In this document: piece after piece, positions 28,800 through 30,682 of the stretch
Layout of the letters: the number at the start of each line of letters is the position of its first letter
Position numbering within the stretch: the stretch's first letter is position 1
Assembly (NCBI GenBank): GCA_964393945.1
Contig: CAYMVR010000001.1
Coordinates: 1 to 31,645 of the forward strand
Source: an uncultured Muribaculaceae bacterium
Lineage (GTDB): Bacteria; Bacillota_I; Bacilli_A; RF39; UBA660
Direction of reading: 5' to 3'
DNA: 31,645 nt
Notes under the pieces: model-generated
Told to the model about the DNA's origin: nothing
The model's database searches: none
What the model saw: only the letters and a program-made list of their open reading frames with translations
Made by a program: the position numbers and the translations under genes

Positions 28800-28872
28800 G
28801 AAAATTCTCACAATACATTCGAGTAAGTGGTATCGAATATTTATTAATGAGAAAATATTACTGGTGAAGATA

Positions 28873-29325
28873 ATGAATTATTCTGAAATACTCAAAAAAA
28901 TGCGTGAAGAAAAAGCACTTTCAAATATAGATATGGGAAAAATACTCGGTATATCCGATAGTATGTATAGTCGTTATGAAAAGCAAAATCAAATAATTCC
29001 TGTTAAGTATTTAGATACACTAAGTAAATTTTTTAAAGTTTCCATAGACTATTTGTTGGGGATTACAAATATAAAAGAGTATAAAAAAAGCGGAACTATT
29101 AATTTAGAAAAATCAGTTGTTAGATTAAAAGAATTTAGAAAAGAAAATAATCTTACTCAAATAGAACTTGCTAAAATATTAAATGTTGCTAATGGAACAA
29201 TTGCTAATTATGAACGGGCTAGAAATGTAATAGCAACTCCCTTCTTATATGAAATCTGTTCTAAATATAGTATTAGTGCTGATTATCTTCTTGGTAAAAT
29301 AGATAGTCCTAAATATCTTAAATAG
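28873..29325 (+). CDS. XRE-family regulator with two tandem HTH domains
   Basis: Two cro/C1-type repeats, each ending in S.DYLLG (LKKMREEKALS... and LKEFRKENNLTQ...); start ATG 28873 (ORF track GTG 28864). Confidence 0.92.
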   Translation: MNYSEILKKMREEKALSNIDMGKILGISDSMYSRYEKQNQIIPVKYLDTLSKFFKVSIDYLLGITNIKEYKKSGTINLEKSVVRLKEFRKENNLTQIELAKILNVANGTIANYERARNVIATPFLYEICSKYSISADYLLGKIDSPKYLK

Positions 29326-29341
29326 GTTTATTAAAAACTTC

Positions 29342-29370
29342 TTTACTTTTAAGTAAATTTAGTTTATTAT
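29342..29370 (+). promoter_or_regulatory. Putative sigmaA promoter of the antisense sRNA
   Basis: TTTACT-N17-TATTAT. Confidence 0.55.
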
Positions 29371-29376
29371 TAAGTT

Positions 29377-29442
29377 GAGCGAGACACTAAATAGTGCTTG
29401 CCAATTTCTTGGTGCACCACTTTTAATGAGTGGTGCTTTTTT
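29377..29442 (+). ncRNA. Putative ~65-nt antisense (type I antitoxin-like) sRNA
   Basis: Lies between the promoter at 29342-29370 and a strong intrinsic terminator; convergent with the peptide mRNA and overlapping its 3' arm. Confidence 0.55.
29414..29442 (+). terminator. Intrinsic terminator (plus strand only)
   Basis: GCACCACT-tttaatg-AGTGGTGC-TTTTTT; no U-tract on the minus side. Confidence 0.8.
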
Positions 29443-29471
29443 AATACCAATAACCCCCTGAATAAGTATTT

Positions 29472-29540
29472 CTACTTAAAGAGAATTAGAAGTACTATTA
29501 TTATTAAAAGTATTAGGATTAGAAAATCTTTCTTACTCAT
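29472..29540 (-). CDS. Putative type I toxin-like hydrophobic peptide, 22 aa MSKKDFLILILLIIIVLLILFK (not in ORF track)
   Basis: RBS AGGTGG 5 nt upstream; single TM helix flanked by Lys; own promoter upstream. Confidence 0.65.
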   Translation of the reverse strand: MSKKDFLILILLIIIVLLILFK

Positions 29541-29596
29541 AATAACCACCTACTTTCATAAGTGGCAAGTACCATTCATTTGTGTCTCGCACTTAC

Positions 29597-29624
29597 AACA
29601 TATCATAAAAAGTTAAAATATCAA
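29597..29624 (-). promoter_or_regulatory. Putative sigmaA promoter of the peptide mRNA
   Basis: TTGATA-N16-TATGTT with TG extended -10; predicted start near 29590 at GCGAGACAC. Confidence 0.5.
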
Positions 29625-29757
29625 AAAACAGATTTTATTAAATCTGCGGAAAATATCCGAACATTCGATAGAAAATGTTCGATTTTTTGTTCTAAAAACA
29701 TAAAATCTGTTAAAAATTCCTGCTAAAAGTGCAAAATCTGTATTTTTTGATATTTTA
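29614..29757. repeat. Nested inverted-repeat/palindrome array
   Basis: Outer arms TAAAATATCAAAAAA(TA)CAGATTTT (29614-29636 and 29733-29757), inner palindromes at 29629-29646, 29647-29659 and 29658-29681, four copies of (A)AAATCTG. Confidence 0.7.
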
Positions 29758-29773
29758 CATAATTTTACATTTA

Positions 29774-30682
29774 TTATTTAGTTTTAGGCTTGCGCATAAG
29801 ATAGAAACTTTCCCCTGCTTTTTTAAAAATCGGTTCAGAAACGGAATATGTATCTTCGGCTATGCCTAATTCTTCTAAAGTAAAAGGAAGTTTTTTTATA
29901 GGGTGACGATTTCGGTTATAAATATAATTGATAAGCACTCCATCAGGATTTAATAGGTCATAAAAGTTTCCAATAAAGGCGTGAAATTCAGAAATACCAG
30001 AATAACGGTTATATGATAGATAGTCAGCAATATTTGATAAAAGAATAATATCATAAGTATTTAATAATTTTTCTGGTAATGTCGTAGCATCAGAAAAGGT
30101 AAATGTTACTTCTACATCATCTAATTTTCTTTGAAGCTTTTGATAGGTTTGTGCATTGCCTAAATAATTATTTCTAAGAAAAGCCTCTGAGCCACCATAA
30201 AAATACAAACTTTCAAAGTTAACTAAAGGATTACCAGAACAAAATTCTAACATACGCCGATAATATTCGTATACCTCTTCTGGTAAATATGGTTTTACTT
30301 CATCAAGAATAATTGAACGTTCAGATGTAGTATAATTAGCAGATGTAAAAGTTTGATTGGCTTTCTCAAAATTACTAGGATCATAGGTTTTAATCATGGC
30401 TTTACGGAGGTGGTAGACAAAATAAGTTAGTCTATTTATATCAAATGTATCTACGGAATGTATTCCACTCTCTATAAGATTGAAGACTTGATCTCCTCCC
30501 GATAAGACTGTTAAAGCTCGATCTTTAGCAAAATTAGTCATTGCTAAATAATCTTTAATACACTCACTGGTAACAAAATAAACACGGGAATACTCACTAA
30601 AGCCTTGGGAAAAAAATGGACCATAAACCAGACTCTTACTAGCACTTAGGGCTTCTTCTAAATTTATAGGCATAACATTCAC
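29774..30682 (-). CDS. DUF3419/BtaA-like SAM-dependent protein
   Basis: ALTVLSGGDQVFNL...DTFDIN and YDIILLSNIADY (class I SAM-binding motifs, DUF3419-like spacing); own promoter TTGACT-N17-TAAAAT at 30704-30732. Confidence 0.72.
   Translation of the reverse strand: MNVMPINLEEALSASKSLVYGPFFSQGFSEYSRVYFVTSECIKDYLAMTNFAKDRALTVLSGGDQVFNLIESGIHSVDTFDINRLTYFVYHLRKAMIKTYDPSNFEKANQTFTSANYTTSERSIILDEVKPYLPEEVYEYYRRMLEFCSGNPLVNFESLYFYGGSEAFLRNNYLGNAQTYQKLQRKLDDVEVTFTFSDATTLPEKLLNTYDIILLSNIADYLSYNRYSGISEFHAFIGNFYDLLNPDGVLINYIYNRNRHPIKKLPFTLEELGIAEDTYSVSEPIFKKAGESFYLMRKPKTK

Follow-up and report, generated by a model that had tools for sequence, protein, structure and literature searches.

We found that the locus between positions 29342 and 29624 of the window, by which we mean the whole 31,645-nt stretch of DNA analysed, is probably one copy of a new, genus-restricted family of type I toxin-antitoxin systems, a reading to which we assign a probability of roughly 70%. 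The sequence-only reading had offered two options, a new type I family or a regulated small membrane protein; this framing is supported by our results, and the comparative evidence favours the first option. It is favoured because the candidate toxin ORF appears to be under purifying selection, because a convergent small RNA (sRNA) has its own predicted promoter and terminator, and because the ribosome-binding site (RBS) is predicted to be sequestered. It is also favoured because the module is multi-copy, patchy and sometimes tandem, is accompanied by pseudogenes and sRNA-only copies, and matches no known family.

The locus represents a candidate new peptide and RNA family among type I toxin-antitoxin systems. 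Its peptide, at 22 aa, is much shorter than the toxins Fst (33 aa) and BsrG (38 aa) with which it was compared, and both peptide and sRNA are missing from the protein collection and the RNA and protein family libraries searched. The hosts are uncultured, small-genome gut Bacilli of rodents and rabbits, and because genes of 22 codons escape annotation pipelines, such loci go unseen in MAG catalogues. For a reduced genome, as many as 19 copies in 1.5 Mb are a large investment, and this suggests a function in keeping the genome stable, in defence against phages or in responding to stress. The ~80 natural variants aligned here form a data set on how an antisense RNA that overlaps the 3' side of its target and a long 5'-3' helix co-evolve.

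Organization of the locus

Sequence inspection and scans bore out the ORF, the RBS, both promoters and the plus-strand terminator of the sequence-only reading, each at the position that had been given for it (Table 1). Promoter matches in this AT-rich stretch are at chance level (7 found versus 7.8 expected from shuffles), and terminators exceed chance (3 found versus 0.3 expected). The significance of the locus comes from comparison: the module is repeated in the genome and in its relatives, the sRNA promoter is kept, the terminator covaries and the substitution pattern of the ORF is that of a coding sequence.

Table 1. Observed and predicted features of the locus, in positions of the window
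Feature	Positions	Strand	Details
Candidate toxin ORF, 22 codons and stop	29472..29540	minus	ATG at 29540, stop TAG 29474-29472; peptide MSKKDFLILILLIIIVLLILFK
Toxin RBS/Shine-Dalgarno (SD) AGGTGG	29551-29546	minus	5 nt 5' of ATG
Predicted toxin mRNA promoter	29597..29624	minus	-35 TTGATA, 16 nt, TG-extended -10 TATGTT; promoter scan
Predicted sRNA promoter	29342..29370	plus	-35 TTTACT, 17 nt, -10 TATTAT; promoter scan
Candidate antitoxin sRNA, ~66 nt	29378..29443	plus	5' hairpin X, variable spacer, terminator hairpin and U6
sRNA 5' hairpin X	29379-29401	plus	GCGAGACAC-loop-GUGCUUGCC
sRNA terminator	stem 29414-29436, with T6 to 29442	plus	9-bp GC-rich hairpin
Predicted SD-sequestering hairpin	29546..29565	minus	anti-SD CCACUUAU (29565-29558) pairs with GUAGGUGG (29553-29546); seen in folds
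mRNA 5' element X	29566..29590	minus	GCGAGACAC...GUACUUGCC; same sequence as sRNA 5' hairpin; inverted repeats
X' stretch of putative read-through mRNA	29379..29406	minus	complementary to mRNA 5' element X and to sRNA 5' hairpin
A/U-rich hairpin	29629..29646	minus	CAGAUUU-AAUA-AAAUCUG, then U6 running into the -35 box; read from sequence
G5 motif	29447..29459	minus	AGGGGGUUAUUGG; in 3' UTR; 75% copy of the true translation start region

The hairpin shared by both strands carries a U-tract on the plus strand only, in all copies, and no canonical terminator was found on the minus strand beyond it. The sRNA is predicted to be antisense to the mRNA 3' UTR, but this complementarity would be certain only for an mRNA that continues beyond 29443. 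With read-through, the sRNA lies entirely within the 3' UTR and does not reach the ORF, its end being separated from the stop codon by 28 nt in the window copy and by ~10 nt in most other units. Likewise, the X' stretch would be transcribed only in an mRNA that runs beyond the shared hairpin, a read-through that we infer.

Upstream of the toxin promoter, the A/U-rich hairpin is kept in alignments of many units that have unrelated genomic contexts, and it may be a terminator that keeps transcription arriving from upstream out of the toxin promoter. Several further elements lie on this side of the module. At 29657-29682, where the module is separated from the DUF3419 gene, there is a hairpin (CGAACATT...AATGTTCG) that resembles a two-way terminator, and both of its strands carry T-runs. 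An inverted repeat of 15 nt with perfect arms (29614-29628 and 29743-29757) provides a second, outward-facing piece of the toxin promoter (TTTTTTGATATTTTA), and the motif AAAATCTGT occurs three times 5' of the toxin promoter, at 29627-29638, 29700-29711 and 29733-29746. The inverted repeat and the AAAATCTGT repeats may be the remnant of a second unit or sites for a regulator.

The peptide gene is conserved as a coding sequence

We recovered 82 distinct full-length module sequences, a number that includes three opposite-strand hits of the same loci. In about 70 of them an SD precedes an uninterrupted hydrophobic ORF, which is most often 22 aa long but ranges over 20-31 aa; a few units have a frameshift or have lost the start codon and are pseudogenes. 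Among 46 distinct 22-codon homologues, entropy at the three codon positions is 0.72/0.32/1.03 and pN/pS is 0.36 in frame versus 0.64 and 1.72 in the other two frames. M1, K3, D5, L7, L11, I14-I16, L17, I19 and F21 are near-invariant. Conservation of the peptide ORF, on which the sequence-only reading depended, is borne out by this in-frame value, and the substitution pattern indicates that the 22-codon ORF is a real coding gene under purifying selection.

The peptide has a 16-residue hydrophobic core between MSKKD and the terminal K and is encoded by a stand-alone short ORF. It is presumed to be a single-helix membrane peptide and the toxin of the module. Searches of six peptide variants against Pfam and NCBIfam returned no type I toxin family at E values up to 10, only unrelated matches at chance level, and an exact look-up of the six variants in a collection of 15 billion proteins found none of them.

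The small RNA is conserved in structure

The sRNA promoter is kept in 71 of 72 units as a -35 box, a 16-18-nt spacer and TAnnnT, ending ~8 nt before an invariant AGCGAG start. In an alignment of 36 diverse copies (A2), 92% of cells are paired in the two-hairpin structure, a value reached by none of 500 shuffles. Both sides have changed at six of the nine pairs of the terminator stem in these 36 copies, and G-U pairs are found on the plus strand only, where the opposite strand would have A-C mismatches. The predicted fold of the window sRNA has an energy of -25 kcal/mol (z -5.2). Taken from this comparative pattern, the sRNA is, in our judgement, a real conserved element. No Rfam family matched at either gathering or permissive thresholds; a match to Spot 42 (25 bits against a cut-off of 80) is due to the terminator only and was discarded.

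Two divergent subfamilies (L022 1470-1692 with L023, and L031 1449-1668 with L032) encode 24- and 27-aa peptides (MTKKDFLIFALIVIIILLILLLFK, MSKKDFLISSLLIIILLLLALLFVVLN). Their 5' elements are unlike those of the main family, yet in them too a convergent, terminated sRNA copies the mRNA 5' end. Both subfamilies are missed by R1, the covariance model that we built from the sRNA.

The mRNA leader and predicted sequestration of the SD

In homologous units the TG-extended -10 box of the toxin promoter (TTTATGATATGTT) is kept 5' of GCGAGAC, which would place the mRNA start at GCGAGAC, near 29591. The SD is paired in a hairpin with an upstream CCAC(U) or CCUC element. Across 67 units the unpaired probability of the SD window is 0.24, versus 0.39 when the upstream sequence is shuffled, and in 62 of the 67 it lies below the unit's own control. 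The models thus predict that the SD is sequestered by the structure of the mRNA.

A second conserved element of the message is the G5 motif, with the consensus (C/U)UUA(A)GGGGGU(C/U)UUGG. In most units it is located in the loop of the mRNA 5' element X (for example, L018 1455-1472), and in units of the window type it is instead located in the 3' UTR, where a direct repeat relates 29436-29459 to 29528-29551. The motif could be a standby or decoy ribosome site. We considered a mok-like leader ORF behind the motif and rejected it, as stops occur in all three frames relative to the toxin ATG and the frame is not conserved.

A long 5'-3' helix is predicted to close the read-through message

The mRNA begins with ~27 nt whose sequence is also that of the sRNA 5' hairpin. 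The similarity between the two copies of X begins at both predicted transcription starts and ends after GCC, and the promoters themselves are unrelated. Because the sRNA 5' hairpin equals X, the 3' end of a read-through mRNA (X') would pair with its own 5' end. For the window, the 221-nt read-through mRNA has a predicted fold of -78 kcal/mol (z -8.2) in which nt 1-27 are paired to ~nt 190-217 and stacked on the SD hairpin; when cut at the shared hairpin, the mRNA has a predicted fold of -52 kcal/mol with local hairpins only. The corresponding z values are -5.9 for L018, a unit of the commonest type, -9.8 for L031 (27-aa peptide, 5' arm GGAACAUUUAAUA...) and -7.3 for L022 (24-aa peptide, 5' arm GGAAUACUUUAACA...). 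The 5'-3' complementarity accordingly holds in three sequence-distinct subfamilies, the X sequences of L031 and L022 differing from that of the main one.

In an alignment of 37 full-length mRNAs (A3), 94.5% of cells are paired in the 18-pair long-range helix, versus 88.5% in the local 5' hairpin. Both sides have changed at two of the long-range pairs, from GC to AU in three units and from AU to GC in four, and one of these two pairs is a bulge position in the local hairpin model. Cognate combinations of 5' and 3' arms outscore all 500 non-cognate combinations (94.5 versus 93.7). The 5' hairpins of mRNA and sRNA are also stable locally, and most of the variation fits both the local and the long-range model. 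A long 5'-3' helix that closes the read-through mRNA is likely but not proven, because related sequences inflate the counts and most single changes fit both models.

That element X is instead an operator is less likely: the distance between its arms varies, being 4-10 nt at the sRNA and reaching ~20 nt at the mRNA, its loops extend the stem, and G-U pairs are kept.

The module is multi-copy and patchy within one genus

As far as our searches reach, the module is a repeated unit of ~300 nt that is restricted to one genus of uncultured gut Bacilli. The window genome, a 1.09-Mb MAG (63% complete, 27.8% GC), holds four to five copies in total, including three further full ones (contigs C7, C16 and C169; 72-81% identity) and a partial one at a contig end, and the neighbours differ for each copy. 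The 22-codon ORF is kept in all four full copies, reading MSKKDFL(I/V)... and ending F(K/R). BLAST matches to the module are present in 26 of 36 genomes of the same genus. R1, which scores the window copy at 69 bits, matches 20 of the 44 species genomes of the genus with 1-19 copies each, and the module is therefore patchy, about half of the species lacking it. Copy numbers are approximate because several copies are at contig ends of fragmented MAGs. When R1 was run class-wide (151 genomes, 108 genera), its matches were confined to the window genome, a second genome from that genus and a single borderline case, and it had no match in 12 other genera of the same family. Further copies and covariation had been named as a check on the sequence-only reading, and a repeated module, R1 matches and a covarying terminator are what we found.

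A pattern scan in which each of 185,579 species was represented by a single genome returned 76 loci, of which 74, from 22 assemblies, were confirmed by an nhmmer profile; the other two, at 68% GC, are chance matches. The confirmed assemblies are low-GC gut MAGs of 26-30% GC (1.0-1.5 Mb in the five checked). Their sources are gut samples of rabbit, mouse and wild mouse together with further metagenome runs, and their labels read uncultured Bacilli, Tenericutes, Mycoplasma sp. or Bacillota. The only runs in which the locus was found are DNA, among them three that had been flagged as possible RNA and proved to be DNA assemblies; those containing the window are gut or faecal metagenomes, mostly from rat and one from rabbit. 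No real match to the module was found in phage and plasmid collections. L058, L065, L066, L076, L077 and other loci lie in MAGs of 1.0-1.5 Mb that have many module copies, with 27-30% GC at the loci; these MAGs are labelled "uncultured Muribaculaceae" or "Ruminococcus sp.", public labels that look wrong because the MAGs carry many copies of a module of a Bacilli genus.

About 10 of 87 units share one neighbourhood, with an XRE-type regulator and a surface protein, and are probably orthologous loci. The other units have diverse, mostly unrelated neighbours, and no transposase was found among the recurrent neighbours of the 87 units. The window is chromosomal, carrying Era, YqfD, a PASTA-domain PBP, PrsA and a MacB-type transporter, with a two-HTH XRE gene to the left of the locus and the DUF3419 gene to its right. 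A 539-aa surface protein in the window has an fn3-like domain. Metagenome contigs from three runs contain a variant with a 311-321-nt deletion (window 28804-29126; XRE gene 28864-29325) that removes the promoter of the XRE regulator and the first of its two HTH domains, and more strain breakpoints occur near 29147 and near 29769-29775.

Tandem arrays are seen in one relative with 19 sRNA matches in 1.5 Mb (L050/L094 on contig C42 of G014, L053 on C18 and L054 on C73). Copies of the sRNA without the rest of the module lie 6-23 nt from full units (L048, L020, L050) and may be spare antitoxin genes.

Proposed mechanism

Building on the analogy with bsrG/SR4 and txpA/RatA, we propose the following course of events. 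A minus-strand mRNA would start near 29591 and comprise element X, the RBS-hiding hairpin, the 22-codon ORF and a 3' UTR that has no terminator of its own. From the plus strand, a convergent sRNA of ~66 nt would be made from its own promoter, end at its own terminator and lie inside the 3' UTR of the mRNA. A read-through mRNA would close the long 5'-3' helix on the SD hairpin to give a stable, poorly translated message. The sRNA would pair over its full length with the 3' region of the mRNA and displace the mRNA 5' arm, and RNase III would cleave the duplex and lead to decay of the message. Once the supply of sRNA stops, the stable mRNA would be translated at a low level and the peptide would damage the membrane. 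Transcription of both RNAs, read-through, cleavage and decay, and toxicity are all modelled on the two known systems; RNase III is encoded in the window genome and in 19 of the 20 relatives searched.

The energy of a duplex between the sRNA and the 5' region of the mRNA is not above that of shuffles (z -0.8). As the sRNA lacks complementarity of the Fst kind to the mRNA 5' region, the two RNAs would interact through their perfect overlap on the 3' side. When the sRNA target was blocked in silico in four units, SD accessibility did not change consistently: the SD stays sequestered, and its helix becomes longer in L031 but not generally. Since blocking leaves the SD sequestered, the main effect of the sRNA would be duplex formation followed by RNase III cleavage and decay, with translation controlled mainly by the constitutive SD hairpin.

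A tentative extension, which we consider more apt to be wrong than right, is that the antitoxin mimics the 5' arm of the toxin mRNA. Competition for the 3' fold-back strand would then switch the message between a closed, stable and silent form and an open form bound for cleavage. The sRNA gene would be an inverted duplicate of the promoter-proximal leader of the toxin, with the SD hairpin turned into a terminator, and the G5 pseudo-start, in the 5' leader or the 3' UTR depending on the lineage, would be a standby or decoy ribosome site that sets the leakiness of the switch.

Alternative explanations

The conserved ORF and sRNA would fit equally well a non-toxic small membrane protein, such as a modulator of a transporter or of the envelope, whose mRNA is tuned by the cis-antisense sRNA, that is, a regulated micro-protein rather than an addiction or defence system. 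The one conserved neighbourhood, shared by ~10 of the 87 units and containing the XRE-type regulator and the surface protein, is also consistent with such a role. Housekeeping micro-proteins, however, are usually single-copy and have a fixed partner gene, whereas here a 1.5-Mb genome can have as many as 19 copies, about half of the species of the genus have none, and the neighbours are mostly unrelated. Tandem arrays, sRNA-only copies, pseudogenes and an SD that is occluded in nearly all copies argue in the same direction, and we give the micro-protein a small but appreciable chance. A MITE-like, non-autonomous mobile repeat, with the inverted repeats at 29379-29406 and 29560-29590 as its termini and the ORF and "sRNA" as incidental, would explain why the module is multi-copy and often at contig ends, why inverted repeats border it and why strain breakpoints fall near 29769. 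Conservation nevertheless passes both repeat arms into two oriented promoters, the similarity of the arms starts at the predicted transcription starts, and transposases are not among the recurrent neighbours. The ORF is under purifying selection in one frame only, and the terminator covaries with G-U pairs on one strand. We reject the MITE, as very improbable, on the grounds that conservation extends beyond the repeats and that selection on the hairpins and the ORF is strand- and frame-specific.

A toxin-antitoxin module could also be a divergent member of the Fst/RNAII (par) group, working by direct-repeat pairing at the RNA 5' ends with a shared bidirectional terminator. Convergent promoters, a shared hairpin and a 40-70-nt sRNA off the ORF, together with an SD-sequestering hairpin and a helix that hides the mRNA 5' end, are features of par (PMC7472228). 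The same likeness, namely promoters that converge, a hairpin in common, a short sRNA that lies to the 3' side and off the ORF, an SD-sequestering 5' stem-loop and a helix hiding the mRNA's 5' end, extends from Fst/RNAII of pAD1 to SprA1/SprA1as (PMC7472228, PMC8594479). Here, however, there are no direct repeats of the DRa/DRb type. The repeats are inverted, and the 5' ends of the two RNAs are therefore identical rather than complementary; trans complementarity to the translation start region is absent, as the z value of -0.8 for the sRNA/mRNA-5' duplex indicates, and the U-tract is present on only one strand of the shared hairpin. The statement in the sequence-only reading that the peptide is not Fst-like holds: it has no PXXXG(C) motif, no proline or glycine, a single C-terminal K in place of a charged tail, and no Pfam or NCBIfam match. 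With two defining features missing, the direct repeats and the PXXXG motif with its charged tail, membership of par is contradicted and scarcely tenable. The reading that we retain is a new type I family.

Comparison with known type I systems

The predicted long 5'-3' helix that closes the full-length toxin mRNA, and the occurrence of several chromosomal copies per genome, are shared with hok/Sok of Proteobacteria and AapA/IsoA of Helicobacter (PMC6733600). There the antisense RNA acts on a 3'-trimmed mRNA, at its 5' or ORF region, whereas here its target would be the 3' fold-back strand, and it is a local hairpin, not the long-range helix, that is predicted to hide the SD. The Ibs peptides of the Escherichia coli Ibs/Sib systems are 18-19 aa long, almost purely hydrophobic and encoded in several copies per genome. 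The module resembles Ibs/Sib in having a very short, almost purely hydrophobic peptide and in being multi-copy. Sib RNA covers the entire Ibs ORF (PMC8594479), whereas the sRNA described here lies wholly in the predicted 3' UTR; Ibs/Sib also belongs to another phylum and has no sequence relation to the module.

The closest parallels are with bsrG/SR4 of the Bacillus subtilis SPbeta prophage (BsrE/G/H group). The complementarity of SR4 covers the 3' half of the bsrG long-range helix P1, and SR4 binding frees nt 1-33 of bsrG, extends the SD helix and promotes RNase III-dependent decay (PMC3834814). As here, the system is found in Bacillota and has a small hydrophobic peptide, an SD in a hairpin and a convergent antitoxin that pairs with the 3' part of the mRNA, including the 3' strand of a long 5'-3' helix, a pairing that in our module is predicted only. 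The differences lie in the peptide (22 aa here versus 38), the sRNA (~66 nt here versus ~180) and the absence of any sequence relation detected by Pfam, NCBIfam or Rfam. T1TAdb gives an ORF overlap for the BsrE/G/H group, whereas the sRNA here has none. In our module, moreover, the 5' hairpins of sRNA and mRNA are nearly the same, and the module occurs in multiple chromosomal copies in a gut genus that is uncultured. From txpA/RatA it likewise differs in sharing no sequence and in having an sRNA that does not overlap the ORF. We propose, by analogy, that the module works most like bsrG/SR4 and txpA/RatA, and on its sequence features we file it as a new family within a known kind, type I toxin-antitoxin systems with a 3'-overlapping antisense RNA.
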